Source: a virus. Taken from it: DNA of 23,078 bases. Numbering within the stretch: the first letter of the stretch is position 1; every line of letters begins with the position of its first letter. Both the position numbers and the translations under genes were made by a program. The stretch is taken from the IMG/VR virus record IMGVR_UViG_3300031949_000010; one strand, written 5' to 3'. Below the pieces are notes generated by a model. That model had not been told where the DNA came from, did not search any database, and saw only the letters and a list, made by a program, of their open reading frames with translations. This document shows positions 105 to 18,670 of the stretch, in pieces.

Positions 105-575
105 ATGGACATTCGGTGCATTTCGCTCATGGAGCCATGGGCAAGCCTCGTCGCCCTGGGCTACAAGCGGATCGAGACGCGCGGCTGGGCGACCGCCTAC
201 CGCGGCCCTCTGGGGATCCACGCCTCCAGATCGACCAAGTGCCTAAAGGACGGCTTTCCCGACAAACTCTGCGAGAGGGCGAACCTGTTCTTCCGGTTCG
301 GCCCAGACTACCCCTGGCCGTTCGGGCGGATTCTCTGCATGAGCGACATCAGGGCCTGCGTCCGGACAGACCTCATGACGCGCCCCGTCGAGCCCCGAGA
401 GATCGCCCTGGGCGACTTCTCGTTCACGTCGGAGCGAAAGAGGTACGGGTTCGTGCTGTCCCCTCCAAAGCTCCTCGCCGACGGCATCCCTCACTGTGGG
501 TCCCTCAGTTTGTGGGAGCCCTCGATCGAGGCGATGGTAAAGATCCGAGGTCTGCTCTCTGGAGCCGGAGTCTGA
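105..575 (+). CDS. ASCH-domain protein (ASC-1 homology, PUA-like)
   Basis: ISLMEPWASLVALGYKRIETRGWATAYRGPLGIHAS matches the ASCH signature (SLxxPWA...GxKxxExR.W...RG.L.IHA); C-terminal GSLSLW; SD GGGGAG upstream. Confidence 0.9.
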   Translation: MDIRCISLMEPWASLVALGYKRIETRGWATAYRGPLGIHASRSTKCLKDGFPDKLCERANLFFRFGPDYPWPFGRILCMSDIRACVRTDLMTRPVEPREIALGDFSFTSERKRYGFVLSPPKLLADGIPHCGSLSLWEPSIEAMVKIRGLLSGAGV

Positions 576-5638: not shown

Positions 5639-5851
5639 ATGGCCCTTGAGGTCGAGATCGCCACATACCGGAGGCTCTGGCCCTCTCTCGTCCAGCGCCA
5701 CCTGGGCAAGCAGGTCCTGATCCAGGGTGATCGGCTGGTCGGCGCCTATCCAGACTATGGCTCCGCCCTCCGCGAGGCGACTAGGCTCTTCGGCACGAAT
5801 CCGTTCCTGATCCGGGAGGTCCGAGACCCGGAGCCGGTGGAGACCCTATGA
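5639..5851 (+). CDS. DUF5678-like small protein
   Basis: LEVEIATYRR...L...HLGKQVLIQGDRLVGAY..Y..A..EA...FG..PFLIREV resembles small proteins typically encoded directly before retropepsin-like proteases. Confidence 0.7.
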   Translation: MALEVEIATYRRLWPSLVQRHLGKQVLIQGDRLVGAYPDYGSALREATRLFGTNPFLIREVRDPEPVETL

Positions 5852-6468
5852 CGGCCGGCGAACGCGCGTTTTCGTTTGGTCGGGAGTCCTTGGCGGCCCC
5901 GAGGCGCAGGTCCCGGAACCTGCTGGGCGCGGCCGCGCCGTCCGCAGGAGCCTCCCTCAGGGACGAGGGCGCGATCATCCAGGTCACGATTCAGCAGCCC
6001 GTGTCCGTGGCGGCGCGCCTGAAGGGCGAGGGCCGGCAGGTCCCAGATCCGTTTCGGGCGCTCGCAATGGTGGACACCGGGGCCTCGATCACGGCGATCG
6101 AGCGGACGGTCGCCGAACGACTGGGGCTCCTCCAGACCGGGGTCGCCCCCGTCGCCGGCGTGACGGGCGTCGCGGAGCAGCCCGTCTATGCCGCATCGCT
6201 CGGCTTCCTCTCTCCGAGCTTCACGCTTGACCCCTGGTCGATGATCGGAAGCCCGATCGGTCGCCAGGGCTTTCATGTTCTCCTTGGACGGGATGTCCTT
6301 CAGCGGCTCCGGCTGATCTACGACGGGGCGTCGGGCGCATTCTCGCTCTCCCCCGCCGACGGAGGACTCGTATCTGGGCCCGGCATCGCGCGGGTAGCAG
6401 GTGTGGTTCTTGCGTTCGCGGGCGTGGGCACGGCTGCGGCCTTCGCGACCGGGCTGCTCAAGCCCTGA
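5848..6468 (+). CDS. Retropepsin-like (clan AA) aspartyl protease with C-terminal membrane anchor
   Basis: AMVDTGASITAI catalytic motif; LLGRDVL closing motif; hydrophobic tail VAGVVLAFAGVGTAAAFATGLL; ATGA coupling to 5639 ORF. Confidence 0.88.
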   Translation: MTAGERAFSFGRESLAAPRRRSRNLLGAAAPSAGASLRDEGAIIQVTIQQPVSVAARLKGEGRQVPDPFRALAMVDTGASITAIERTVAERLGLLQTGVAPVAGVTGVAEQPVYAASLGFLSPSFTLDPWSMIGSPIGRQGFHVLLGRDVLQRLRLIYDGASGAFSLSPADGGLVSGPGIARVAGVVLAFAGVGTAAAFATGLLKP

Positions 6469-9061: not shown

Positions 9062-11017
9062 ATGGCATCGGAGCTCACGCCCGCCATCCGCGAGGCGGTC
9101 GACGCGCTCTTCAGGCAGGGCGTCACGAAGGCCAGCGAGATCGTCGACACCCTGGCCCAGCGCAAGCTCAAGATCAACGCCATGCAGGTGGGTGGTCTCT
9201 GGACACTCTACCGCCGCAAGATGGCGGCCGAGCCCGGCGCGCCCAAGATGTCCCCCGACCCCCTGAAGCGTGCGGCAAGGGCGCAAGCGGACGCCGACGA
9301 CAGGCTGAAGTTGGGCGTGGGTGCCACGGACGACGGCTTCAACTGGTCTGGGGACGGGAAGGGCGGCGGGCTCGGGTTCGGGCAGTCCAGGGTAGAGGTG
9401 CACGTCACCCGCATCGCCCCCGCGAACGACGGCTTCCTCGGCGTCGAGGAGGACGGCCTCACACCCGACCAACTCGGCCGCAAGTACGGCTGGGGCACCT
9501 ACGACCTCGTGAAGTACGTGAACGGCACGAAGATCGCCACGTCGAGGATCTCGATCGCGAAAAGCTACGGCGACCCACGCGCCCCGCGGAACCCGGCCGT
9601 GCTGCCACGTCTCGTCCCCCGGGACGAGGAGGCGGAGAGGGCGACGCATCGGGCGCCCGAGAGCGGGTCGGCGGGACACCTGGGCGACGTGGTCCAGACC
9701 TTCAAGACCCTGAAGGACATCGCCGAGGCCGACCGGCCTGGCGCAACGGCTGCGGAAGCCAAAGTCATTGATCGTGCCCTCGAGGTCGCCATGGGCGGGA
9801 AGAGCGCGCCCGGGCAGGACGCCCTCGAGCGGTTCGTGAAGGAGCAGTCCGCAAGGGACGCCGCCGAACGCATCGCCGAGCGAGACCGCGAGAACGCCCG
9901 CCGCGCCGAGGAGCGCGAGCGGTGGAACCAGATGGAGAAGGAGAGGGAAGGGGCCCACACGCGCGAAATGGAACGTATCCGGGCTGAGGTGGCCGCGACT
10001 GAGAAGCGCGACCGCGAGTACCGGGACTTCCTCCAGAAGAACGAGAAGGACCGGGAGGCGCGTCTCGAGAAGGTGATCCAGGAGACGAACGAGTCCGTCC
10101 AGGGCCTCCAGGTGGCCATGAAGGATGAACTCGACAAGAACCTCGCCCACCAGCGGGAGTTGGCGAAGATCGAGCGCGACCGGCTCGACAGCGACCGCAC
10201 GCGCGACACGCGGGAGCTCGCGCAACTCAAGGAGCACCAGCAGCAACTCTTCGAGCTCCAGAGGCAGAGCCTGCCGGGCGCCGGATCGGACAAGGCGACC
10301 GAGATGATCGTCGGCCTGATCCAGAACGCGCTCGCGAAGGTCGAGACGAAGGCGAACGAGATCCTCCAACTCAAGAAGCTCGAGAAGGTGATCGCCGCGC
10401 TCGGCCCCGAGAACGCGCAGCAACTCGCCGCCGCCTTCATGCGGCAGGGCGGGATAGACCTCGGCAGCTTCCTGGGCGGACGCGGACCCGCCGCTCCGGG
10501 CGCCCGCCCGGCGGGGGCCGAGGGCGCGGCCACCGGCGGGGAGCCCAAGGCCGAGGCGAAAGAGGACCCGAAGGGGGACGGCATGAACGGCATCGCGCAG
10601 CAGGTCTACGGCACCCCCTTCTTCCGGGACCTCCTCTCGATCTGGTCGGGTCACCTGCGGATGAAGCGGACGCCTTATCTCTTCGCGAACCAACTCTGCG
10701 GCTACATGCTCGAGGACCGCCGGGTCGAGCTCTTCTACAACTACATGGCGGGCCTGACATGGCCCGAGTTCCTGGCGGAGATCCGGGACAAGGTTGATCC
10801 GGACAGGCTGCCGCTCTTCGAGGCCCCAGAGGCCTTGGCGTTCTTCGACGCGGTGATCGACCTCGTTGCGCAACGGGTGGAGAAGGACCACGTCGACCGG
10901 AACATCGTACCGAGGAAGGCAGCGGGGGCGGGGGCGGCCATGGCAGTCCCGGCTGCGGAGGCCGCGTCCGCCAACGGGAGCGCGGCCACGCCTGCCATGG
11001 AGGGCGGCTCGAAATGA
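9062..11017 (+). CDS. Large coiled-coil protein (N-terminal helical/HTH-like region, YGWGTY domain, E/R/K-rich coil, helical C-terminal domain)
   Basis: SD GGAGG; strongly GC-ending codons; long charged heptad-like stretch; ATGA overlap with next gene. Confidence 0.85.
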   Translation: MASELTPAIREAVDALFRQGVTKASEIVDTLAQRKLKINAMQVGGLWTLYRRKMAAEPGAPKMSPDPLKRAARAQADADDRLKLGVGATDDGFNWSGDGKGGGLGFGQSRVEVHVTRIAPANDGFLGVEEDGLTPDQLGRKYGWGTYDLVKYVNGTKIATSRISIAKSYGDPRAPRNPAVLPRLVPRDEEAERATHRAPESGSAGHLGDVVQTFKTLKDIAEADRPGATAAEAKVIDRALEVAMGGKSAPGQDALERFVKEQSARDAAERIAERDRENARRAEERERWNQMEKEREGAHTREMERIRAEVAATEKRDREYRDFLQKNEKDREARLEKVIQETNESVQGLQVAMKDELDKNLAHQRELAKIERDRLDSDRTRDTRELAQLKEHQQQLFELQRQSLPGAGSDKATEMIVGLIQNALAKVETKANEILQLKKLEKVIAALGPENAQQLAAAFMRQGGIDLGSFLGGRGPAAPGARPAGAEGAATGGEPKAEAKEDPKGDGMNGIAQQVYGTPFFRDLLSIWSGHLRMKRTPYLFANQLCGYMLEDRRVELFYNYMAGLTWPEFLAEIRDKVDPDRLPLFEAPEALAFFDAVIDLVAQRVEKDHVDRNIVPRKAAGAGAAMAVPAAEAASANGSAATPAMEGGSK

Positions 11018-11712
11018 TGCCCTTCGTCATGCCCCGTACCCGCCTGGGCGTCGCCGTCGACGCGCCCGGGCCGAGGGAGGGCGAGATCATCCGGACCTCG
11101 GTGCCCGACACGATGGAGGGCATCCGGTTCGAGATGGGCCGCATGGTCCGCTCCGTCCAGGAGGCGGTCGGGGACCCGGTCGTCGTCGATGCTGCCAGGA
11201 TGATCCTCCTGGCGTCGGAGCCCAAGAACAAGATCTCGGAGCTCGGCGCGATCTTCGCGTGGTCGAAAGCGCACTTCCACTACGTGAGCGACCCCGTCAA
11301 CAAGGAGTACATGCAGTCGGCCCGGCGGATGATCCGGCAGGCGCAGGCCCCGAGGGCGATGCTTGCCAGGATCCTGGCGCCGATCTACGGGCACGCGAAA
11401 AACGGCGTGGTCCGGATGGACGGCCGCGAGATGAACGGCCCTCTGCCAAAGGCCCTCGGAGACTGTGAAGAAGCGGCCGTGCTCACGGCGAGCCTCGCGG
11501 GTGCCGTGGGAATACTGCCCCGTTTCCGCTACGGGGGCGCAGGCAAGAGCCTCTGGCACGCCTGGAGCCAGGCCTACGTCCCGCCCGATGGCCTGTCGGG
11601 CGTGGGCCCAGAGGGCCAGTGGCTCGACATGGACATCACCGAGACGAAATACGACCTCGGACAGCACGCGCCCTTCCGGGCGTACGCGCACCAGGAGATC
11701 TTCGAGAACTGA
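11014..11712 (+). CDS. Transglutaminase-like (papain-fold) cysteine enzyme, candidate maturation protease
   Basis: FHYVSDP..KEYMQS, GDCEEAAVLTASL (Cys), WHAWSQAY (His), WLDMDIT (Asp). Confidence 0.85.
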   Translation: MMPFVMPRTRLGVAVDAPGPREGEIIRTSVPDTMEGIRFEMGRMVRSVQEAVGDPVVVDAARMILLASEPKNKISELGAIFAWSKAHFHYVSDPVNKEYMQSARRMIRQAQAPRAMLARILAPIYGHAKNGVVRMDGREMNGPLPKALGDCEEAAVLTASLAGAVGILPRFRYGGAGKSLWHAWSQAYVPPDGLSGVGPEGQWLDMDITETKYDLGQHAPFRAYAHQEIFEN

Positions 11713-11713
11713 T

Positions 11714-12364
11714 ATGGGCGTCCCCGAGTTGGTCTGGGAAGGCGGCGCGCCGGGAGGCGCGGCGTTGGCGGAGTCGGTCCGCCCCGGACGCGGCGGCTTC
11801 GACGTCCTCGAGCTCGGGCGCGGACCGGCGCTCGCGCAGGCAACCGATATGGTGATCCCCGGACCCGCGAGCGGCTTCGACCTGGCCGGGGGCCTCATGG
11901 GCCTCCTCTCGGACGGGATCTCGGGGCTCGGGACGATCATCGGTGCGCCGCTCGGCGTGATCGGCGACGCCGCCTCGTTCGTGATCGACGGAATCGCGGG
12001 GCTCGTGGGGAAAATACCGATCGTGGGCGAGTTGGTGGGGACAGTGCTCCTCGTCGGGAAGACGCTCCTCAACGCGGGCCTCAGCCTGCCCGAGACGGTG
12101 CTCAAGGCGTTCGCGAACGTCTTGGGCAGCTTCTCGAAACTCTCTTCCGACCAGCAGAAGAAGGTCTCCGAGGCCGCGATCGGGAAGCTGACCTCCTGGG
12201 GCAAGGAGAAGGGCCGGGAGGAAGACGTGCGGTCTATGCTCGAGAGGAACGCGCCACTCCCGGGCGGGGCCACCTCGGCACCGCCGGATGCGAGTTGGGG
12301 AACGGCGCTCGTCGGGATCGGGGTTCCGGTGGTGCTCACGGGCGGGGCGGCCCTTTTCGCATGA
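11714..12364 (+). CDS. Gly-rich putative virion membrane protein with C-terminal anchor
   Basis: ATG 1 nt after previous stop; amphipathic G/L/I/V-rich middle (KIPIVGELVG); tail WGTALVGIGVPVVLTGGAALFA. Confidence 0.75.
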   Translation: MGVPELVWEGGAPGGAALAESVRPGRGGFDVLELGRGPALAQATDMVIPGPASGFDLAGGLMGLLSDGISGLGTIIGAPLGVIGDAASFVIDGIAGLVGKIPIVGELVGTVLLVGKTLLNAGLSLPETVLKAFANVLGSFSKLSSDQQKKVSEAAIGKLTSWGKEKGREEDVRSMLERNAPLPGGATSAPPDASWGTALVGIGVPVVLTGGAALFA

Positions 12365-12383
12365 CGGAGGGGGAAGGAGAACC

Positions 12384-13022
12384 ATGGCCGACGAGGTGAT
12401 CGAAATGGGATCTTTTGAAGGAGGACGGAAGATGGCATCGAGGAAGGGCGGCGGCCTGGGGCGCCAGGTGGACCGGGCCGTCAACATGCTGGCGCGCGAG
12501 CGCGCGGGCCTGGGCTCCCGCGCCGGCTTCGGCCGGCCGGGCTTCGGCAACATCAGGCGCGAGGAGCTCGCCGGCCGGTTCGGCCACGAGAGCTTCCTGG
12601 GCGCCATCATCCCCAAGCAGGTGAAGCCGGTGCCCGTGATCCTGGGCACCGTCGTGGGCGTCGGGGTGAACAGCGCCGTGGGGCGCCTCCTCGAGAGCCC
12701 GGCGGTCGGGATCAACGCGAACCCGCTGCTCGCGCGCGTGCTCCTGGCCGGGGCCGGCGTGATCGGCCACATCGCGCTCAAGACGGACTTCACGCTCGGG
12801 TTCATGGTCGGGCAGTTCCCCGGCCTGATCGACGCGGGCGTCTCGGCCATCATGGACATGGCCCTGGGCGAGACCTCCCTGGCGGGCGCCGGCAACGGGC
12901 TGGGCGTCGCGTCCCAGGAGACCCTGAACGAACTCCGCGCGCTGCGGCGCAAGCTGGAGGGCGAGGGTGCGACCGGGCAGGGCGCCGTGCCGATGGGCCT
13001 CCGGGCCCGAGCGGCGGCGTAA
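12384..13022 (+). CDS. Putative virion core/membrane protein with basic GLG/GFG-repeat N-terminus
   Basis: SD GGAAGGAG; Arg-rich N-terminus with GGGLG, AGLG, AGFG, PGFG, GRFG, SFLG, then hydrophobic helices. Confidence 0.8.
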   Translation: MADEVIEMGSFEGGRKMASRKGGGLGRQVDRAVNMLARERAGLGSRAGFGRPGFGNIRREELAGRFGHESFLGAIIPKQVKPVPVILGTVVGVGVNSAVGRLLESPAVGINANPLLARVLLAGAGVIGHIALKTDFTLGFMVGQFPGLIDAGVSAIMDMALGETSLAGAGNGLGVASQETLNELRALRRKLEGEGATGQGAVPMGLRARAAA

Positions 13023-13231
13023 CCAAAACCTTCGGCTTTCGCGCCGGGCGGCGGCGGCGCCTCCTTCCGGGGGAGGGACCGATCGGGTCCTTCAGGGAGG
13101 GCCGCCCCGCCGCGGGCGCACGCGGTTCATGGAGTGTGGTGCGAGAGGGTGGGGAGACGCGGTGACCTGGTTCGTTCGGTTTGAGAGTGACGGTTCCGGG
13201 GGCTTCCCCGGCCGATGAAGGAGGCAAGACG
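13023..13231 (+). promoter_or_regulatory. Structured intergenic region/leader before the candidate capsid gene
   Basis: Nested stems between about 13041 and 13119 (GAGGGACC/GGTCCTTC inside CCTCCTT/AGGGAGG inside GGCGGC/GCCGCC) and CCGGGG-GCTT-CCCCGG just before the SD. Confidence 0.55.
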
Positions 13232-13987
13232 ATGATGCAGAAGATGCCGGGCGGCATCCTGCCGGGGTCGGCGTTCACCTACAAGGACTGCGCGGGCGCG
13301 CAGCTCACGGCGTACGCGTTCTGCTCGACGATCATCCAGGCGAAGACCGCCGAGTTGACCGTCGTGGACAGCTACGACACGCCGGCCACGAACGAAGTCG
13401 CCCAGGGCGACATCGTGAGCGACCTGCGGCTGACCACGGGGGACCCGGACCAGGAGTGCGGCCTGTCGGAGAACGACCGCTTCTTCAACGAGGCGAACGG
13501 AGCCGGCTACGCCGACAAGTGCTCCGTCACCGTCCTCTACTGCTACGGCGTGTCGGCCGAGAACCTGCTGACGCTCCCGCAGGCGGTGGCGGTGAACGAC
13601 TCCTGCCTCGAGGAGGTCTGGAACTCGAACGAGCGGTGCCGCATCATCAAGAACATGATGCAGCACTACTGGAACAAGTACCCCGTCGACGCGATCGCCG
13701 CCCAGGGCGCGGTCGGCGCGACGCAGGCCACGTTCCGGGAGATCGTCAACATGGGCGCCAAGTCGCTCGACGACCTCGGCTGCAACTGCTGGTACACGTT
13801 CAACCAGCGCGACCAGACGCTCCGGATCAACATCGACAACCTGGACTCGACGCCCTTCGCCGTGGGCGACACGATCCGGTTCGTCGGCACCTTCGGGACC
13901 CTGCAGCTCGTGCCGAGCCTCGAGTGCATCCGGCCGCTGGGAGCCGTGGATCTCCAGCCGCTTGCGCCGGCGATGCCGGCGGCCTAG
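13232..13987 (+). CDS. Candidate major capsid/major virion protein (251 aa, 10 Cys)
   Basis: Ideal SD GAAGGAGG; near-exclusive C/G-ending codons; flanked by hairpins; no TM segment. The CDS is firm; the capsid role is inferred from context only. Confidence 0.6.
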   Translation: MMQKMPGGILPGSAFTYKDCAGAQLTAYAFCSTIIQAKTAELTVVDSYDTPATNEVAQGDIVSDLRLTTGDPDQECGLSENDRFFNEANGAGYADKCSVTVLYCYGVSAENLLTLPQAVAVNDSCLEEVWNSNERCRIIKNMMQHYWNKYPVDAIAAQGAVGATQATFREIVNMGAKSLDDLGCNCWYTFNQRDQTLRINIDNLDSTPFAVGDTIRFVGTFGTLQLVPSLECIRPLGAVDLQPLAPAMPAA

Positions 13988-14010
13988 GCCGGGATCAAGC
14001 AAGGCCATTC

Positions 14011-14065
14011 CAGGGGGAGGAGCGCCCGAGGAACTGGGCGCCCGGGCGCTCCATCCCTTCCCCTG
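14011..14065 (+). terminator. Stem-loop after the candidate capsid gene (attenuator or mRNA 3' stabiliser)
   Basis: Perfect 10-bp IR GGAGCGCCCG (14019-14028)/CGGGCGCTCC (14043-14052), outer CAGGGG/CCCCTG; no U tract. Confidence 0.5.
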
Positions 14066-14097
14066 CCCCCCGTGGGTAGGGCCCGAAGGAGGTCTCC

Positions 14098-14802
14098 GTG
14101 GCCGAAGGTCGGTCGTCCATCCAGGGGCAATCGCCGCGCGCCATCGAGGCGCCGCCGCGCGAAGGCTTGGGGCTCTCCCAAGCGAGTGCGGACGGGCTTT
14201 TCGTCGTCACGCTCTCGGACTACTTCCGGGACGGCAAGAACAAGACCGACAAGGTCCTCCGGAAGATCGCCGGCGCAGCGGGCCTTCCGCAGGTCCTGGC
14301 AGCGCTCGGCTTCACGCTACCCCGGGAGGCCTACTTCCCGTCGCCCCTCCAGGAGGCGCATCGGCCGCTCAAGACACTCCTTGTTCCCGCGAAACTGGCC
14401 ACGGATCCGCCCGGCCAGATGGACTGCAACGTCCGATTCTGCGCCCCCAGGACCTGCTGGCTCTACATCCGCGACCTCTTCGCCCGGCCGCTCAACCTGA
14501 CGGCCGCCGAGAGCCTCGTCCTCCGCTACAGCCTCCAGTGCGGCTCGAACACCGCCTTCATCGACTTCTGCCAGATCACGTCACAGGCCTCCGAGGCGCC
14601 GGGGCAGTACACGCCGCCCCAGGTCCTCATGGTGCCGCCCACGGGATGCCTCGTGATCGACATCTTCAACGAGGATCAGCACTCCGAGGCCTGGATCGGC
14701 CTCACCGGGTTCCAGTGGCTCGTCCCCGTCGAGGAAGGAGACCCCGTCCTCGGCCTGCGCAGGCAGGCGGCAGCGCGCGCGGCGGGAAGGAACGGCCGAT
14801 GA
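14098..14802 (+). CDS. Putative virion protein, beta-rich C-terminal half with 6 Cys (possible second capsid protein)
   Basis: SD AAGGAGG, GTG start; strand-like segments LVIDIFNE, AWIGLTGFQW. Confidence 0.7.
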   Translation: MAEGRSSIQGQSPRAIEAPPREGLGLSQASADGLFVVTLSDYFRDGKNKTDKVLRKIAGAAGLPQVLAALGFTLPREAYFPSPLQEAHRPLKTLLVPAKLATDPPGQMDCNVRFCAPRTCWLYIRDLFARPLNLTAAESLVLRYSLQCGSNTAFIDFCQITSQASEAPGQYTPPQVLMVPPTGCLVIDIFNEDQHSEAWIGLTGFQWLVPVEEGDPVLGLRRQAAARAAGRNGR

Positions 14803-15527
14803 GCCGCGCCGCCCTGCTGGGCGTCGACGAGGTGATCGAGCTCGGTCAGGAGCGCCCTCCCGAGAGCGCGACCCCGACCGAGCTCCAGGAGATCCGCAGC
14901 GTGATCGACGCTTGGATCGCCCGCTACGGCCGGGAGGTCACGAGGCTGGTCGCCCGGCAGAGCCGTCTCGCACAGGAAACCGGGGAGTCGCTCTTCCGGC
15001 TCTGGCTCCAAGAGGTCGGTGCGACGCTGGGCATCGTGCCCAACCCAGCCGAGGTCTGGGAGGCGACGCGCCTGGTGGCCTTCCGGCTACTCTCGGTCGG
15101 GCAGGCGTTCGCGCAGCAGTACCACCCGTACTTCACGGACGAGCAGGACCGCCTGCTCTCTATGGAGATGGACCAGGCCCTGAAGACGATCGACACGGCC
15201 GAGGAGTTCTCGCGGGCGCTGCGCCCGGAGGTCCTGCAGTACATCGAGCGCCTCATCAAGGGCGCGACCCAGGTCCTTATGGACGTCTCGGCACAACTCG
15301 CCGACATCCTGAAGCGCGTCGGCTTGGCCGCGATCGAGGTGCCCCAACTCACCTTCGACCTCATCAAGTGGATCCGGGAGCACATCGGCCTCGTGGTCGG
15401 GATCGGCGTGGCCGTGGTGGTGGCCGCATTCGTCGTCCCGCCCCTCATCCAGGCCTCCATGGCCTCAGGGCGCATGTCGGGCACGGCGGCGGGGCCCGCG
15501 GGACGCCTCGGAAGGAGCGCGGCATGA
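14799..15527 (+). CDS. Helical protein with C-terminal TM anchor, putative virion membrane protein
   Basis: ATGA overlaps at both ends; IGLVVGIGVAVVVAAFVVPPLI. Confidence 0.8.
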   Translation: MSRAALLGVDEVIELGQERPPESATPTELQEIRSVIDAWIARYGREVTRLVARQSRLAQETGESLFRLWLQEVGATLGIVPNPAEVWEATRLVAFRLLSVGQAFAQQYHPYFTDEQDRLLSMEMDQALKTIDTAEEFSRALRPEVLQYIERLIKGATQVLMDVSAQLADILKRVGLAAIEVPQLTFDLIKWIREHIGLVVGIGVAVVVAAFVVPPLIQASMASGRMSGTAAGPAGRLGRSAA

Positions 15528-16327
15528 GCGAGGGAACCCTCGGCATGGCCGTCCAGTCCCGCCAGCGCGGCGAAGCCCTCGCCCTCGCGCTCCACGTGTC
15601 CGGCCTGGTCGGCGCGTCGGAGACCGTGACCTCGAACGCCGTCCGTGCGCAGGGCTACAACGCCGTCGTCGGCCTCATCCTCTCGGACGTCGCCTTCACG
15701 ATCGAGATCCAAGGGGCGAGCGCGATCCGCAAGGCCGGTCGCCAGGTAGCGGGAGAGTGGACCACGCTCGAGTCGATCGCGAGCGCCGCCTCCGGCGCGC
15801 GCCAGCGCGTCACCCTCGACCACGAAGTGCGGGCCGACTACATCCGGATCCGCCTCGTGAACGGGGCCTCGAAGGAGAGTTTCCTTCAGCACGGCGTCCG
15901 GCTCATTCCCATCTTCTCGTTCAAGCGCGTCGAGGTCGTGAGCGGAGACATCGACGTCACGGCCGCGCCCATTGGCACGCCGACGCCGACGACCGGATCC
16001 CAGAACCTCGCCTTGGCGCCACTTGCGCTGACTTCGACCCCGGCGGTCGCGAAGAAGGCGCGCTGGGTCTCGATCTCGTTCTCAGCCGTCCTCCCGGCGC
16101 TACAGACCGTCACGATCACGCTTGACAGCGCATCCGGAGCTGCTTTCGATGTCCTGATCGAGAGCGTGAACATCCTGCCGGCCGCGTCCGTCGCTGCACA
16201 GGGGTATTTCTTCGAATTCCCGCCCGAGATGCTGCTTGCGGCGGGTGACCAGATCAGGGTCGAACTCACAAACACCGGAGCTCCCGCAGTCACGGCGAGC
16301 GCCGTCATCATGATGGAGACCGGCTAA
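15524..16327 (+). CDS. Two-domain beta-sandwich structural protein (penton/spike-base-like)
   Basis: SD AAGGAG; SDVAFTIEIQG...W...ADYIRIRLVNGA and a second domain ending LAAGDQIRVELTN, both jelly-roll-like strand patterns. Confidence 0.7.
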   Translation: MSEGTLGMAVQSRQRGEALALALHVSGLVGASETVTSNAVRAQGYNAVVGLILSDVAFTIEIQGASAIRKAGRQVAGEWTTLESIASAASGARQRVTLDHEVRADYIRIRLVNGASKESFLQHGVRLIPIFSFKRVEVVSGDIDVTAAPIGTPTPTTGSQNLALAPLALTSTPAVAKKARWVSISFSAVLPALQTVTITLDSASGAAFDVLIESVNILPAASVAAQGYFFEFPPEMLLAAGDQIRVELTNTGAPAVTASAVIMMETG

Positions 16328-17950
16328 ATGTCTTTACGCGGGTCCCGGGTCGGCGGCGTCCCGACGGACGAGGGCGTCTTCGGAACCGGCGCGCTCAACG
16401 AGAACATCGTCGGCGTCATCGTGCGCGCCGCAATGTCCGGGGAAGACGCTTCCGCAGCCGCGGGCTTCCGCAACGTCCCCATCGCCTCCCGCGCCGCGCT
16501 CGCCGCGCAGGCCTACACGGACCAGCGGCTGCTTGTTGACGGAGTGGTGCGCGGCGACGACGGGGTGACGTACAGCGCAATCCCGGCCCGCGCGGGAAAT
16601 GTCGCGATCTCCGAGAGCATCGTGGGTCTGCTTGTGGATGCTCGGGTGGTCGGATGGGACTCCGACGCGGTCGCGGGCTCACAAAACATTCCTGTTCAGG
16701 CTCGCAACGCCGTCGCCGCGCAGTCGTACACTGTGTACCGCCTTCTGACTGATTCCGTCCTCCGCGGCGATGACGGGGCGACGTGGAGCGCAGTCGCAGC
16801 CAGGAACTGGGATGCTGACGGGGATGCCGGATCCACCCTCATCGGTCTTATCGTAAACGCCAGGCTCGCAACCGTGACAGGTGCGTCTGGAGGGGCGACG
16901 GTTAACCGGCTTTACGCCGATCTTCCGTCCGGAATATCCGGAACCACAGATACTGCGGTATTCGCACTCTGGACCGCTTCGTACTGCGTCGGCAGAGACA
17001 CGACGGGCGCCGCCGTTGCGCGACCCGTAGAAGCGAGGGACTATGGCGTAGATGGGGACGCAGACGCCGCTCTGATCGGACTTCTCACGAATGCTAGAAA
17101 CGCAGTTTTCCAAACCCCCACATCAAGCGTCTGGACACGCATATCAGGGGATGCCGTAAGCAGTCTGACGGGTGAATCGACCGGCTCGCAAGTGTGGACG
17201 CGCGTTGCTTCGTCTCTATTCGGCGTCGACACAACCGGCGCCGCCGTGGTCAGGTCGGTGGAGGCGCGGAATGCTGACGCAGACGGTGACTTTGCCACGA
17301 CGCTGATAGGCTTGCTGGTAAATTCGCGTAACGCTCTTCTCGATGCGTCATCCGGTGGATGGGTCATCCAAGGCGGACTCCGAGAAGTGACTGGCGGTGT
17401 GGACGCTGCGCTGATATATGAGACGAGGGAGAGTGGATACGTTTCTTCCATTCGCGAGCGCCGCTTCATCGCGACCTCCCAGACCGCCGGAGCCACTCTC
17501 ACCGCCCAGGCTGCTTTCGTCGCGACGACCCCGACGCTCATGTTGCGACAAGCGGCGGGAGCGACCGAGACGGAAGTCGTCCGGTCCATCTCGATCACTT
17601 CCTTCGCGGCAACTCCAGCCGGGATCCGCGTCGTCGTGATGCTGGATCCGGATGACCGCTTCTCGGCCGGCGGCACGGCGGTCGTGCCTCAGAATCCGAA
17701 CGAAGGCTCGGCTGCTGCCAGCGGCATCACAAGCTTCCTCGAGAACCCGACCGCGACGGCCGCGGACGCGGACGAGCGGATCATCTACAACGAGGGGTTC
17801 GCGGGTGGGGTCGGTGCCAAGCTGGTCCTTGAGTTCAAGGACGAGATGATCCTCTCCGGGGTCGGCACGATCCTCGTCTACGTCTTCGACTCTGCCGGGG
17901 CTGCCGCGCCGACGATCGCTTGGAATTTTGAGTGGGAGGAGTATGTGTAA
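16328..17950 (+). CDS. Putative spike/receptor-binding protein with 71-78 aa internal repeats and beta-rich C-terminal domain
   Basis: TAAATG coupling; five [IL][VI]G[LV][LI]xx[AS] cores; A/G/T/V-rich; ends WNFEWEEYV. Confidence 0.75.
   Translation: MSLRGSRVGGVPTDEGVFGTGALNENIVGVIVRAAMSGEDASAAAGFRNVPIASRAALAAQAYTDQRLLVDGVVRGDDGVTYSAIPARAGNVAISESIVGLLVDARVVGWDSDAVAGSQNIPVQARNAVAAQSYTVYRLLTDSVLRGDDGATWSAVAARNWDADGDAGSTLIGLIVNARLATVTGASGGATVNRLYADLPSGISGTTDTAVFALWTASYCVGRDTTGAAVARPVEARDYGVDGDADAALIGLLTNARNAVFQTPTSSVWTRISGDAVSSLTGESTGSQVWTRVASSLFGVDTTGAAVVRSVEARNADADGDFATTLIGLLVNSRNALLDASSGGWVIQGGLREVTGGVDAALIYETRESGYVSSIRERRFIATSQTAGATLTAQAAFVATTPTLMLRQAAGATETEVVRSISITSFAATPAGIRVVVMLDPDDRFSAGGTAVVPQNPNEGSAAASGITSFLENPTATAADADERIIYNEGFAGGVGAKLVLEFKDEMILSGVGTILVYVFDSAGAAAPTIAWNFEWEEYV
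16397..17330 (+). repeat. Protein-level tandem repeats (A-A-B-B-partial) in the spike gene
   Basis: Cores at 16406, 16619, 16838, 17072, 17303; type A contains RGDDGxT[YW]SA, type B contains GxDTTGAAVxRxVEAR. Confidence 0.85.
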
Positions 17951-18575
17951 CATACTTCTTGCCCTGATGTGGACAACGTCCATAGAAGCCAATGGCCATA
18001 TTGCAGTTGTGGCACAGCACACGAAAGCCTTTCGGCCATCCGGCCCTTCTCAACCAAACGGCCATTTCGAATCCACGATAAGAAGTCTTCTTCCGATGCT
18101 TCTCTCCTCCCCCCTTTTTGTGGTCGAGAGCAAGGAATTCGTAGGCCGACTCTCCACAACATGCACATTGGGGAGGATCTCCACCGTAATGAGTCAGCGC
18201 CAGCAGACGAATTCTTTTCTTGCTTGCTCTAGAAGACTTTCTGTAGAAGTTCGGGTTTTTCCTTCTCCTATTCCTGATGTACACACGACAGCATTCGCAA
18301 CACCATGTCTTGAGCTTGTCTTGGCGGCTGTTGTCCAGTGTGTACATATGAAGCGGTCGCGCGATCCCACACCGTTTGCATATCCTGAGAATAAGCGACC
18401 GTCTGCGTTTTTTCCTACGGATGTATCCGTTGGAGCAAGATATACATATTGCGGACAGGCCATCCTTGGATTTTCCAGAAAGACGAAACGCACAACGCCT
18501 TTTCCAAGACGCGCAATAGATACATCTTTTGCGGTTGCGAAACTGGAACGGTATGATCGGTTGATCCATAGCCAT
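17835..18575 (-). CDS. Free-standing HNH-type endonuclease with two N-terminal CxxC...CxxC modules
   Basis: CACCGE...FLALDHKKGGG...FRVLCHNCN...CPH; SD GGAGG before ATG 18575; markedly lower GC; only convincing minus-strand gene. Confidence 0.85.
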   Translation of the reverse strand: MAMDQPIIPFQFRNRKRCIYCASWKRRCAFRLSGKSKDGLSAICISCSNGYIRRKKRRRSLILRICKRCGIARPLHMYTLDNSRQDKLKTWCCECCRVYIRNRRRKNPNFYRKSSRASKKRIRLLALTHYGGDPPQCACCGESAYEFLALDHKKGGGEKHRKKTSYRGFEMAVWLRRAGWPKGFRVLCHNCNMAIGFYGRCPHQGKKYVTHTPPTQNSKRSSARQPRQSRRRRRGSCRPRRGSSRP

Positions 18576-18603
18576 GCGCCCTCCATAGCGCAGGTTGTGG
18601 CCA

Positions 18604-18646
18604 GAGGCCGACGCCCGTGTCTGCGGGTATCGGCCTCGTTTATTAT
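18604..18646. terminator. Strong hairpin followed by T-rich tract on + strand
   Basis: GAGGCCGA..CCCG/CGGG..TCGGCCTC (18604-18637) then GTTTATTAT. Confidence 0.55.
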
Positions 18647-18670
18647 CGGACAATTCGAAGAACGAGTCAA
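18642..18670 (-). promoter_or_regulatory. Putative promoter for the HNH gene, TTGACT-N17-GATAAT
   Basis: -35 at 18670-18665, -10 at 18647-18642 on the minus strand. Confidence 0.6.

Follow-up and report, generated by a model that had tools for sequence, protein, structure and literature searches.

Phage-encoded enzymes of the transglutaminase fold have been described in a cell-wall role, PeiW and PeiP cleaving the pseudomurein Ala-epsilon-Lys bond (PMC4592898, PMC2989375). The only cultured-phage relative of the enzyme studied here is gp34 of SSIP-1, a tailless phage with an internal membrane. Virion-borne cell-wall hydrolases are usual in bacterial membrane-containing tailless phages, and we know of none of these phages that uses a maturation protease.

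The window analysed is a 23,078-nt stretch of DNA from an uncultured GC-rich virus-like element, and the product of 11014-11712 lies within its virus-type structural gene block. The original prediction for this block was a virion maturation system in which a transglutaminase-fold enzyme trims or cross-links proteins bearing terminal [LMF]G motifs; the positions of the ORFs and of all dipeptides that it named were confirmed. The features are as follows.

5848..6468, plus strand: retropepsin-like aspartyl protease with a C-terminal TM segment, outside 11014-16360 (PF13650, PF13975)
9062..11017, plus strand: coiled-coil upstream partner of the enzyme, 651 aa; short N-terminal domain, long coiled coil, C-terminal helical domain
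11014..11712, plus strand: transglutaminase-fold cysteine enzyme, 232 aa, without TM segment (PF01841, homologues, AF2 model)
11035..11049, plus strand: R-T-R-L-G, enzyme residues 8-12, in the disordered N terminus (conservation, pLDDT)
11320..11457, plus strand: lineage-variable insertion, enzyme residues 103-148 (alignment, AF2 model)
11464..11466, plus strand: catalytic Cys151 codon, motif GDCEE (invariant in 19 sequences)
11557..11559, plus strand: His182 codon (invariant in 19 sequences)
11632..11634, plus strand: Asp207 codon, motif W-L-D-M-D-I-T (invariant in 19 sequences)
11714..12364, plus strand: Gly-rich membrane protein, 216 aa (TM-like windows 80-119 and 196-216)
11798-11818, plus strand: weak tag-like FDVLELG in the 11714 ORF (motif read in the sequence)
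12384..13022, plus strand: membrane protein, 212 aa, conserved downstream partner of the enzyme (19 homologues; TM-like windows at 85-133)
12384..12410, plus strand: MADEVIEMG tag, 9 codons, at the annotated start of ORF 12384 (homologue alignment)
12418..12434, plus strand: AAGGAGG, 7-nt spacer and Met17 ATG of ORF 12384 (DNA, alignment)
12537..12551, plus strand: P-G-F-G-N junction, residues 52-56 of ORF 12384 (alignment)
13232..14802, plus strand: two Cys-rich ORFs, 251 and 234 aa, candidate particle proteins (no family match)
14799..15527, plus strand: tail-anchored membrane protein, 242 aa (TM-like window 191-224)
14826-14849, plus strand: DEVIELG-Q in ORF 14799 (homologue alignment)
15524..16327, plus strand: 267-aa ORF, mostly beta-strand in a very low-confidence AF2 model

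ORF 11714 starts one base past the stop codon of the enzyme gene, and the start of ORF 14799 overlaps the previous stop codon as ATGA.

Results

ORF 11014-11712 matches PF01841 (Transglut_core) in Pfam with an E-value of 5.7e-6, scoring 27 bits against a cut-off of 23. It has 12 close homologues together with distant ones in the related loci L001-L007 and L009. In an alignment of 19 sequences (26-97% identity) G149-D150-C151, H182 and D207 are invariant, unlike D205, which confirmed the predicted intact Cys-His-Asp triad. The AF2 model (pLDDT 77.6) matched transglutaminase-fold structures with Z 13.0-8.6, and Foldseek also returned such matches. Those found include CPR-C4 (7pjo), a solved cysteine protease, the putative proteases 3kd4 (Z 13.0) and 3isr (Z 10.5), factor XIII and TG2/TG3 (Z 12.1-10.8), PeiW (Z 8.8), PeiP (Z 8.6) and LapG (Z 8.6); among BFVD fold matches PeiP ranked fifth, and the first was a 304-aa viral protein (E 1.7e-9, TM 0.60). 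By alignment and model the product is a cysteine amidohydrolase of the transglutaminase (papain-like, clan CA) fold that is catalytically intact and apparently active; the fold does not by itself separate protease from isopeptidase, glycoamidase or transamidase. No TM-like window was found in its 232 aa. The insertion noticed earlier between EYMQS and GDC proved real and lineage-variable: it separates the N-terminal helical region from the catalytic Cys, is missing from the L006 and L007 short forms and from SSIP-1 gp34, is longer in L001, L002, L004, L005 and L009, and contains Cys in the L002 group. AF2 models it as two helices followed by a lower-confidence stretch at about residues 126-146, and gives residues 1-16 of the enzyme a pLDDT below 50.

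Searching with the L007 homologue of the enzyme, the sole match among 50,697 phage records was SSIP-1 gp34 (E 2e-11). The enzyme family profile also found gp34 (97.7% probability, E 1.6e-12), with Cys, His and Asp aligned. As gp34, the one cultured-phage relative, is annotated in GenBank as "structural protein", a particle-associated role is reasonable. gp34 has a TM anchor at its C terminus.

The gene order coiled-coil protein, enzyme, membrane protein is the same in L002, L004, L006, L007 and L009, and the coiled-coil gene, the enzyme gene and the ORF 12384-family gene form a cassette across very divergent virus-like elements. The 651-aa coiled-coil protein, for which Pfam, PHROG and NCBIfam gave no match, is collinear with a 575-aa protein upstream of the L002 enzyme (E 8e-6), and a protein of the same build precedes the enzyme in L004, L006, L007, L009 and SSIP-1 (ORF 33). 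Distant ORF 12384 homologues lie downstream of the enzyme in L002, L003, L004 and L009. No other gene of the block is as well conserved as the enzyme gene across hosts from different phyla, and it stays tied to these two viral partners. Neither Cys-rich ORF had a family match in Pfam, PHROG or NCBIfam, and profile comparison did not link them to the putative shell proteins of L002 or L009. GC3 within the window peaks at ORF 13232 (0.96), for which a set of 1.8 billion representatives contained hardly any relatives. For ORF 15524, the single-sequence AF2 model is of very low confidence (pLDDT 37.8); its closest clusters in the ESM Atlas, at a score of 0.91, consist of unnamed viral proteins, which is no more than a lead.

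Most proteins of the module had been said to bear terminal [LMF]G tags, and a composition-corrected enrichment check had been proposed. We counted sites within 40 aa of a terminus against composition-preserving shuffles in the 7 module proteins and, for comparison, in 19 proteins encoded elsewhere in the window. The module had 16 terminal sites compared with 10.6 +/- 3.0 after shuffling (p 0.058) and 35 in total compared with 29.0 (p 0.11); the non-module proteins had 30 compared with 19.8 (p 0.012) and 51 compared with 35.9 (p 0.003). Observed over expected terminal counts are therefore 1.5 in both sets, with no module-specific excess, and the raw terminal density of module versus non-module proteins gave an odds ratio of 1.46 (p 0.24). 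GRLG is kept in 0/5 orthologues, AGLG in 3/19, AGFG in 3/17, PMG in 10/19 and NGLG in 12/19, and the C-terminal examples are not conserved. With an excess no greater than that of non-module proteins and most examples not conserved, the general tagging claim fell away: most of the listed LG, MG and FG dipeptides are ordinary composition, perhaps helix C-caps. What stands of the proposed virion system is a genuine enzyme in a structural block, with a relative annotated as structural.

Conservation is complete at three N-terminal [LM]G sites, whose flanks vary. The [LM]G of RTR-LG in the enzyme is retained in all 11 close homologues that cover the site, and R-x-[LM]-G has no clear alignment in distant ones; IE[LMF]G of ORF 12384 is found in 13/13 orthologues and IELG of ORF 14799 in 6/6. 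PGFG-N of ORF 12384 is likewise kept in 19/19. DEVIELG-Q occurs in five of the six ORF 14799 homologues, with L15-G16-Q17 invariant and its flanks variable. DEVIE[LM]G is carried by two membrane-protein families, and all tagged proteins are membrane proteins, one of them tail-anchored. A heptamer sharing 6/7 residues between two N-termini arises in 91/300 shuffles, and DEVIE[LM]G is meaningful only because it is conserved in orthologues. RNA structure near the tags is unremarkable (z 0.39, -1.5, -0.6). G[LMFIV]G, a motif chosen post hoc, occurs 16 times in the module against 9.1 expected (p 0.019) and 8 times in non-module proteins against 6.4 (p 0.31). ORF 12384 supplies 6 of these 16 sites (6 versus 2.1 expected, p 0.013), and the excess of [RK]-x(0-1)-G-hydrophobic-G is gone once this ORF is removed (p 0.36). 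The Gly-hydrophobic-Gly excess is modest and driven by ORF 12384; L007 and L009 show none, and in L002 and SSIP-1 it is marginal. A few short conserved N-terminal motifs are left as possible cutting or sorting signals.

MADEVIEMG is present in 13 of the 19 ORF 12384 homologues, with conservative changes only (D/N/E, V/I, I/L, M/L/F), and the remaining 6 are called from Met17. All 20 sequences have this residue and, four or five codons before it, a conserved Gly-Gly; in a distant clade, from which the DEVIE tag is missing, the N-terminal Met aligns with it. Met17 is likely the ancestral or an internal start, and the tag is a clade-specific add-on upstream of it. Because the tag precedes an invariant Met17 that has its own Shine-Dalgarno sequence, a tag-less form is possible without proteolysis. 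All 20 sequences share F54, G55 and N56, and G55, inside G-[FLM]-G-[NKE]-I, does not vary in 22 sequences drawn from two distant clades, each of which has retained the enzyme. The approximately 40 N-terminal residues ahead of G55 include a helix conserved in both clades, which does not resemble a disposable propeptide.

Discussion

We tentatively favour, at a probability well below even, a particle-associated peptidase that acts on viral proteins. The enzyme would be built into the forming particle, or act at it, and would cleave a few membrane or assembly proteins of the virus where a conserved hydrophobic-Gly junction lies in a flexible N-terminal region, thereby releasing or priming them. 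Candidate cut sites are R-x-[LM]-G12 of the enzyme itself, DEVIE[LM]-G of ORFs 12384 and 14799, and G-F-G55 of ORF 12384. We infer peptidase activity, substrates, cut sites and timing alike: the Pfam match, the invariant triad and the fold matches of the model to proteases are consistent with such a role, as are the gp34 link, the viral protein that heads the BFVD matches, the kept cassette, the conserved N-terminal [LM]G sites and G55, and the membrane nature of every tagged protein, and the module-only Gly-hydrophobic-Gly enrichment (p 0.019 versus 0.31) is modest support. A likeness to adenain would be one of function only, the residue order here being Cys-His-Asp (clan CA) and not that of clan CE. 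Several points argue against trimming of the tags: the enzyme family is far wider than DEVIE[LM]G; proteins outside the module show as large an [LMF]G excess as those inside it; that two proteins of the window share DEVIE[LM]G is insignificant on its own; ORF 12384 supplies much of the Gly-hydrophobic-Gly excess; the Met17 start and the helix before G55 each count against it; and PeiW and PeiP, of the same fold, offer by analogy an equally good precedent for a cell-wall role.

It comes close to an even chance that the motifs are not substrates of the enzyme at all. The LG dipeptides would be mostly composition or helix caps, and DEVIE[LM]G either a clade-specific sorting or docking handle for membrane proteins or, in ORF 12384, an alternative-start extension giving long and short isoforms. 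The equal excess in non-module proteins and the unconserved C-terminal examples fit this, as do the restriction of the tag to membrane proteins, the Shine-Dalgarno sequence of Met17 with its match to the ancestral start, and the homologues called from that residue. However, the tag substitutions are conservative at the peptide level, V to I would break any rRNA-pairing reading, the surrounding RNA is ordinary in structure, and a handle and a cut site can coexist. Such a reading is compatible with either of the next two.

Almost as probable as the favoured reading is a cell-wall peptidase carried by the virion, located at or close to the viral membrane, which would cut peptide or isopeptide cross-links of the host wall at genome delivery or lysis, the Gly motifs being unrelated. 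PeiW and PeiP, which both match the model, are phage-encoded transglutaminase-fold enzymes with such a job, and PRD1 and Bam35 would offer a parallel, since their virions carry lytic enzymes. The structural annotation and C-terminal anchor of gp34 point the same way, its build resembling that of P7 in PRD1 and gp26 in Bam35, both virion hydrolases associated with the membrane. The enzyme gene sits among membrane-protein genes, and no other cell-wall hydrolase is recognisable in the window or in 20 kb of L007. On the other hand, the window enzyme lacks a cell-wall-binding domain as well as a TM segment, SSIP-1 already encodes an endolysin (ORF 31, GH108 plus PG_binding_3), and phage cell-wall peptidases are usually NlpC/P60 or CHAP rather than Transglut_core. 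The top conservation of the enzyme and its two tied viral partners fit assembly at least as well.

That the enzyme is a true transamidase or deamidase, cross-linking Gln to Lys or deamidating particle proteins (for example at the Gln of L-G-Q in ORF 14799) and so stabilising the contact between shell and membrane, is improbable. The matches to factor XIII and TG2/TG3 would suit it, and the invariant L15-G16-Q17 lies in a flexible N-terminal region, but no Gln follows the Gly in ORF 12384, ORF 11714 or the enzyme, and prokaryotic Transglut_core proteins with proven cross-linking activity are, to our knowledge, rare. Least probable of all is cleavage of the tags by a host enzyme or by the membrane-anchored product of 5848-6468. 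The latter, with its active-site D-T-G, matches PF13650 (E 1.4e-6) and PF13975 (E 2.8e-6), above or at thresholds, and has a C-terminal TM-like window at 175-204. Against it, none of the related loci examined showed such a gene, cleavage after Gly is as far as we know not typical of retropepsins, and it is encoded outside the structural block.

Family, catalytic residues and fold of the enzyme

The product of ORF 11014-11712 (232 residues; hereafter the enzyme, all other ORFs being named by their start coordinate) matches the Pfam family PF01841 (Transglut_core, clan Peptidase_CA) at E 5.7e-6, its 27 bits exceeding the cut-off of 23. Besides this family, no Pfam match was obtained up to E 0.1, PHROGs and NCBIfam gave no match for the enzyme, and a PDB sequence search with the enzyme family profile returned no match up to E 1. 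Metagenomes contain 12 close homologues with 63-97% identity, and distant homologues with 26-37% identity occur at the metagenomic loci L001-L007 and L009, the L009 contig having been binned with a Thermoanaerobaculia genome. G149-D150-C151, H182 and D207 are invariant across all 19 enzyme sequences aligned, which bears out, in the order C151-H182-D207, the intact Cys-His-Asp triad that had been claimed from the sequence alone. The insertion suspected between EYMQS and GDC is also real: it spans residues 103-148, is missing in the short forms of L006 and L007 and in gp34 of SSIP-1 (Salisaeta icosahedral phage 1), and in the L002 group it is longer and contains Cys. The enzyme has no signal peptide, hydrophobic N-terminal segment or transmembrane (TM)-like window.

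The AF2 model of the enzyme has a pLDDT of 77.6, with residues 1-16 disordered; C151 is the first residue of a helix that runs to residue 164, and strands carry both H182 and D207. Fold matches of this model (VIA) include the putative protease 3kd4 (Z 13.0) and factor XIII (Z 12.1), followed by TG3 (Z 11.1), TG2 (Z 10.8), the putative cysteine protease 3isr (Z 10.5), PNGase (Z 9.9), PeiP and PeiW (Z 8.8 and 8.6) and LapG (Z 8.6), and Foldseek retrieved transglutaminase-fold structures with probability 1.0. With all three defining features present, namely the profile, the triad and a papain-like alpha/beta core, the enzyme belongs to the transglutaminase-like superfamily. The structural matches settle its fold but not its reaction, because the superfamily spans proteases, isopeptidases, glycoamidases, deamidases and transamidases (PMC10318531). 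The enzyme is conserved and apparently active on amide bonds.

Relation to gp34 of phage SSIP-1

Among 50,697 phage records, tblastn with the window enzyme as query found no match. With the L007 homologue as query, exactly one phage matched, SSIP-1, at gp34 (E 2e-11), and hhalign of the enzyme family profile with gp34 gave a probability of 97.7% (E 1.6e-12) and put all of Cys, His and Asp in register; the connection was reached solely via distant homologues and not via the window protein itself. gp34 (JN880423 21296-22210, 304 residues) is annotated in GenBank as 'structural protein', passes PF01841 and ends in a hydrophobic, Gly/Leu-rich segment that forms a putative TM anchor. The top BFVD fold match of the enzyme is a viral protein of 304 residues, equal in length to gp34 (E 1.7e-9, TM 0.60). 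SSIP-1 itself lacks a tail; its icosahedral particle has an internal membrane and two types of major capsid protein (PMC6356626).

The two proteins differ in that gp34 carries the C-terminal anchor and lacks the 103-148 insertion, whereas the window enzyme has no anchor. ORF 11714, which starts one base downstream of the enzyme, has TM-like segments, and no similarity was found between it and either the gp34 C-terminus or the large membrane protein of L007. The gp34 gene follows that of a coiled-coil protein of ~400 residues and precedes genes for small membrane and structural proteins, and the enzyme gene is placed alike. None of the other proteins of the window block was detectably similar to the SSIP-1 block, and SSIP-1 ORF 35 and the ORF 12384 family show no similarity. 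The enzyme is a relative of gp34 without its anchor.

Elsewhere in SSIP-1 (locus L010) we noted the following:
9525-10079, ORF 31, a GH108 + PG_binding_3 endolysin, three genes upstream of gp34
15432-16394, structural protein gp40, an AAA_25-type ATPase

A conserved gene cassette around the enzyme

The gene order in L002, L004 and L009 is a coiled-coil protein of ~575 residues, a small ORF, the enzyme, a membrane protein and several small beta-rich proteins, and that in L006 and L007 is a protein of ~390 residues, the short-form enzyme and a Gly-rich membrane protein of ~590 residues. ORF 9062 is collinear in alignment with the L002 coiled-coil protein (E 8e-6), and the membrane protein 3' of the enzyme in L002, L003, L004 and L009 is homologous to ORF 12384. 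By profile comparison, ORFs 13232, 14098 and 15524 showed no similarity to the shell-protein candidates of L002 and L009, nor was similarity between groups detected among such candidates. Because these proteins are dissimilar between groups and the enzyme alone is common to the window block and SSIP-1, the enzyme is the most conserved gene of the block. The single-sequence AF2 model of ORF 15524 reached a pLDDT of only 37.8, too low to reveal a jelly-roll shell protein in the window. Scans of viral_contigs found no relative, and a further candidate locus, L008, was dropped as a spurious pattern match.

Membrane-containing tailless phages are abundant and poorly understood, and SSIP-1 has, to our knowledge, so far stood almost alone in sequence space. 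A cysteine enzyme with an apparently intact catalytic site is the most conserved gene joining it to virus-like elements from soil and sediment that measure 20 to about 100 kb. It thus provides a marker for finding an SSIP-1-related lineage, and it raises a question that is testable in a cultured phage.

By eye, residues 100-115 of the following ORF hold a junction of hydrophobic-Gly type, G-L-G-F-G-Q, which closes the N-terminal domain and directly precedes a small beta domain:
9062-11017 (+), coiled-coil protein
The corresponding junction of its homologues reads K-F-[SA]-G-K-Q in L006 and L007 and G-F-T/K-P in L002 and L004.

Terminal hydrophobic-Gly motifs in the module

The original prediction held that most proteins of the module (ORFs 11014, 11714, 12384, 13232, 14098, 14799 and 15524) carry recurrent [LMF]G tags near their termini. 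We counted [LMF]G within 40 residues of a terminus in these 7 proteins and in the 19 non-module proteins of the window and compared the counts with composition-preserving shuffles.

Terminal and total [LMF]G dipeptides, observed vs expected from shuffles
Protein set; terminal [LMF]G; total [LMF]G
7 module proteins; 16 vs 10.6 +/- 3.0, p 0.058; 35 vs 29.0, p 0.11
19 non-module proteins; 30 vs 19.8, p 0.012; 51 vs 35.9, p 0.003

The ratio of observed to expected terminal motifs is 1.5 in module and non-module proteins alike, and the raw terminal density does not differ between the two sets (odds ratio 1.46, p 0.24). Recurrent tags as a property of the module did not survive this check: the excess of [LMF]G is a general property of these proteins, and the "recurrent terminal tags" are largely a matter of composition. 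A hydrophobic residue followed by Gly is a common helix C-cap. When site conservation was scored on the orthologue alignments A1, A2 and A3, the C-terminal examples were not conserved (GRLG in 0/5 orthologues, PMG in 10/19, NGLG in 12/19), nor for the most part were the "GLG/GFG units" of ORF 12384 (AGLG in 3/19, AGFG in 3/17, GGLG in 9/19). Dipeptide "tags" of the LG type in GC-rich genomes evidently need controls for both composition and conservation.

A second motif, G[LMFIV]G, was chosen post hoc and tested against shuffles. It is in excess in the module (16 vs 9.1 +/- 2.9 expected, p 0.019) and not in the non-module proteins (8 vs 6.4, p 0.31), with ORF 12384 alone contributing 6 of the 16 sites (2.1 expected, p 0.013). 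When a basic residue was required before the motif, the module had 5 sites against 1.8 expected (p 0.04), 3 of them in ORF 12384, and the excess was gone once that ORF was removed (p 0.36). Among the related loci, the motif is marginally enriched in L002 and SSIP-1 (p 0.034 and 0.043) and shows no excess in L007 and L009 (p 0.46 and 0.50). The overall excess is weak and the individual cases are suggestive, a lead rather than proof. Single occurrences include R-R-R-G-L-G at residue 21 of the L007 protein that follows the enzyme and, in SSIP-1, R-G-L-G in gp37, Q-G-M-G in ORF 36 and R-G-M-G in gp34.

A short list of conserved sites

The following sites are conserved, or match the sequence DEVIE[LM]G (hereafter the tag):
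Enzyme, R-x-[LM]-G12, kept in 11/11 orthologues
ORF 12384, residues 3-9, DEVIE[LM]G; IE[LMF]G9 kept in 13/13 homologues having that N-terminus
ORF 12384, PGFG55-N, kept in 19/19
ORF 14799, residues 10-16, DEVIE[LM]G; IELG16 kept in 6/6, Q17 invariant
ORF 11714, residues 29-35, FDVLELG, a weak form of the tag

When the distant clade is added, G55 in G-[FLM]-G-[NKE]-I is invariant in 22 sequences. The three ORFs with the tag or its weak form (12384, 14799 and 11714) all encode membrane proteins, that of ORF 14799 being tail-anchored. The occurrence within the window of a heptamer common to two N-termini at 6 of 7 positions is not significant (91/300 shuffles); DEVIE[LM]G is nevertheless credible because it is strictly conserved in both families amid variable flanks. 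Its only substitutions in homologues are conservative at the peptide level (D/N/E, V/I, I/L, M/L/F). The conserved sites form a short list of candidates for co-expression and mass spectrometry.

Two explanations of the tag at the level of translation were discarded. A nucleotide-level signal, in which GAGGTGATC pairs with the 3' end of 16S rRNA, was dropped in view of V to I and other changes that are conservative at the peptide level, and translation attenuation via a leader hairpin was dropped in view of folds around the three tags that are no better than those of shuffles.

The beginning of ORF 12384 contains a second in-frame start:
12384-12434, nested in-frame starts, with the Shine-Dalgarno sequences GAAGGAG before the ATG at 12384 and AAGGAGG before the ATG at 12432
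This second start, Met17, lies seven codons past the tag, with AAGGAGG 7 nt before it, and is invariant in 20 sequences; 6 of the 19 homologues of ORF 12384 are called from it. Since Met17 is invariant and aligns with the N-terminal Met of the tag-less distant clade, the tag appears to be a clade-specific add-on upstream of an ancestral start. With its own Shine-Dalgarno sequence, Met17 therefore allows a tag-less form of ORF 12384 to arise by internal initiation. The enzyme family, moreover, far exceeds the tag in age and breadth. As read from these alignments, the Met17 start and the breadth of the family complicate a simple interpretation of the tag as a cleavable leader.

Possible functions of the enzyme

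The proposal that the enzyme and the tags form a virion maturation system stands in part: the enzyme is well supported and its putative virion context likewise, but the tags are largely composition, and the likeness to adenovirus, ASFV and poxviruses is one of function only. Proteases of the adenain group, found in these viruses, are cysteine proteases packaged in particles with an internal membrane or jelly-roll proteins, where cleavage of several precursors takes place at short sites containing Gly. They have a clan CE fold with His before Cys, whereas the enzyme has the order Cys151-His182-Asp207 and all its strong fold matches are clan CA/transglutaminase-like; because both residue order and fold are those of clan CA, the enzyme falls outside the adenain group and the comparison is an analogy of function.

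Narrowed to the conserved sites, the earlier idea becomes that of a particle-associated peptidase which would cleave a small number of the virus's proteins where hydrophobic-Gly junctions are conserved. We hold this only tentatively, as the most probable of three readings. It is consistent with the conserved N-terminal sites, one of them on the enzyme itself, with the co-conservation of G55 and the enzyme across clades, with the tight linkage of the enzyme to two viral partner genes and with the annotation of its SSIP-1 homologue gp34 as a virion structural protein. Set against these, no significant site code runs through the module's proteins, ORF 12384 has the Met17 start and the supposed propeptide holds a conserved helix; in addition, we know of no precedent for a maturation protease among bacterial membrane-containing phages. 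In the open-access literature we found no paper that connects a transglutaminase-like enzyme with the particle of a jelly-roll or membrane phage, or that describes a transglutaminase-fold enzyme as a particle gene conserved in membrane-containing phages. A parallel is offered by LapG/BTLCP, small Cys-His-Asp proteases of the same superfamily that trim the N-terminus of one specific substrate associated with the membrane; LapG, however, is periplasmic, calcium-dependent and of another Pfam family, and the enzyme lacks both that family match and export signals. If the enzyme does process particle proteins, proteolytic maturation in this virus architecture would not be confined to its eukaryotic members.

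It is possible, and only slightly less probable, that the enzyme instead acts as a virion-borne isopeptidase that opens the cell wall during entry, a suggestion made by analogy with PeiW and PeiP of methanogen phages (MEROPS C71). These are virus-encoded, share the transglutaminase-like fold (8z4f, Z 8.8; 8jx4, Z 8.6; BFVD rank 5) and hydrolyse an isopeptide bond of the cell wall (PMC4592898, PMC2989375). The putative membrane anchor and structural annotation of gp34 would fit such a role, as would the finding of no other recognisable wall hydrolase in the window or L007. Virion lysins are usual in tailless membrane phages. PRD1 P7 and Bam35 gp26, for example, are carried with the internal membrane of such phages and encoded among membrane-protein genes, but they are transglycosylases or muramidases, unrelated to the enzyme in fold and chemistry. 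On the other side, SSIP-1 has a separate GH108 endolysin and the enzyme has no binding domain, whereas PeiW and PeiP, as lysins of archaeal walls, carry N-terminal pseudomurein-binding repeats (PMC2989375); sequence similarity between them and the enzyme is undetectable. Should the enzyme open the cell wall, it would add a new type to the virion lysins that act on bacteria.

The most specific form of the peptidase proposal is that the enzyme is the maturation or priming protease of a large, SSIP-1-related lineage of tailless membrane-containing bacterial viruses, cutting short, conserved N-terminal tags that end in Gly (DEVIE[LM]G, R-x-[LM]-G and G-[FLM]-G) off membrane and assembly proteins inside the particle. 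We consider this unlikely as a whole; if true, proteolytic maturation of the adenovirus type would have its first counterpart in prokaryotes, and the protease fold would be an unrelated one. A cross-linking or deamidating activity, for instance on the invariant Q17 of L-G-Q in ORF 14799, is improbable. Finally, any processing might be the work of a different enzyme encoded in the window, a minor alternative:
5848-6468, retropepsin-like aspartyl protease with a D-T-G motif (Pfam PF13650, PF13975) and a C-terminal TM segment

Other features of the window and related loci

Most of the window has a G+C content of 64-72%, and its plausible genes lie nearly all on the + strand. Besides the retropepsin-like protease it encodes a C5 DNA methylase and a DnaJ-like protein, and the remaining ORFs of the window gave no family matches. 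A protein identical to ORF 14799 is found on a record from a 96-kb contig.

Two further ORFs of the window stand out:
13232-13987, Cys-rich protein with the highest GC3 in the window (0.96)
17835-18653 (-), Cys-rich protein, the only sizeable minus-strand ORF
ORF 13232 has almost no relatives among 1.8 billion representatives; its sole distant match is a multihaem cytochrome c of 1268 residues, in 8 repeated stretches (E 2e-11), a match that could stem from a degenerate relationship between CxxC repeats or from composition alone. The minus-strand ORF lies in a stretch of 56% GC, against about 68%, between a repeat-rich ORF of 540 residues and a protein with 32% Gly. It shows an HNH-like D-H...N...C-x-x-C-N pattern with a weak match to the YbcO nuclease family as its sole Pfam match (E 0.005), and may be an inserted homing-type nuclease.

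At the related loci, two regions were of note:
L007 1-20196 (contig Ga0157376_10000638, 22.7 kb), 50% GC, with a protein-primed family B DNA polymerase (PF03175, E 3.5e-16)
L001 146-1264, ORF directly upstream of the enzyme homologue
L007 also carries one clear family-2 glycosyltransferase and two weaker GT2-like ORFs beside the cassette of coiled-coil protein, short enzyme and large membrane protein. The L001 ORF has a Walker-B-like I-F-I-E-E-A stretch ahead of a coiled coil, with a winged-helix-like tail after that; with no Pfam confirmation, it may be a packaging-type ATPase cut by the contig end.
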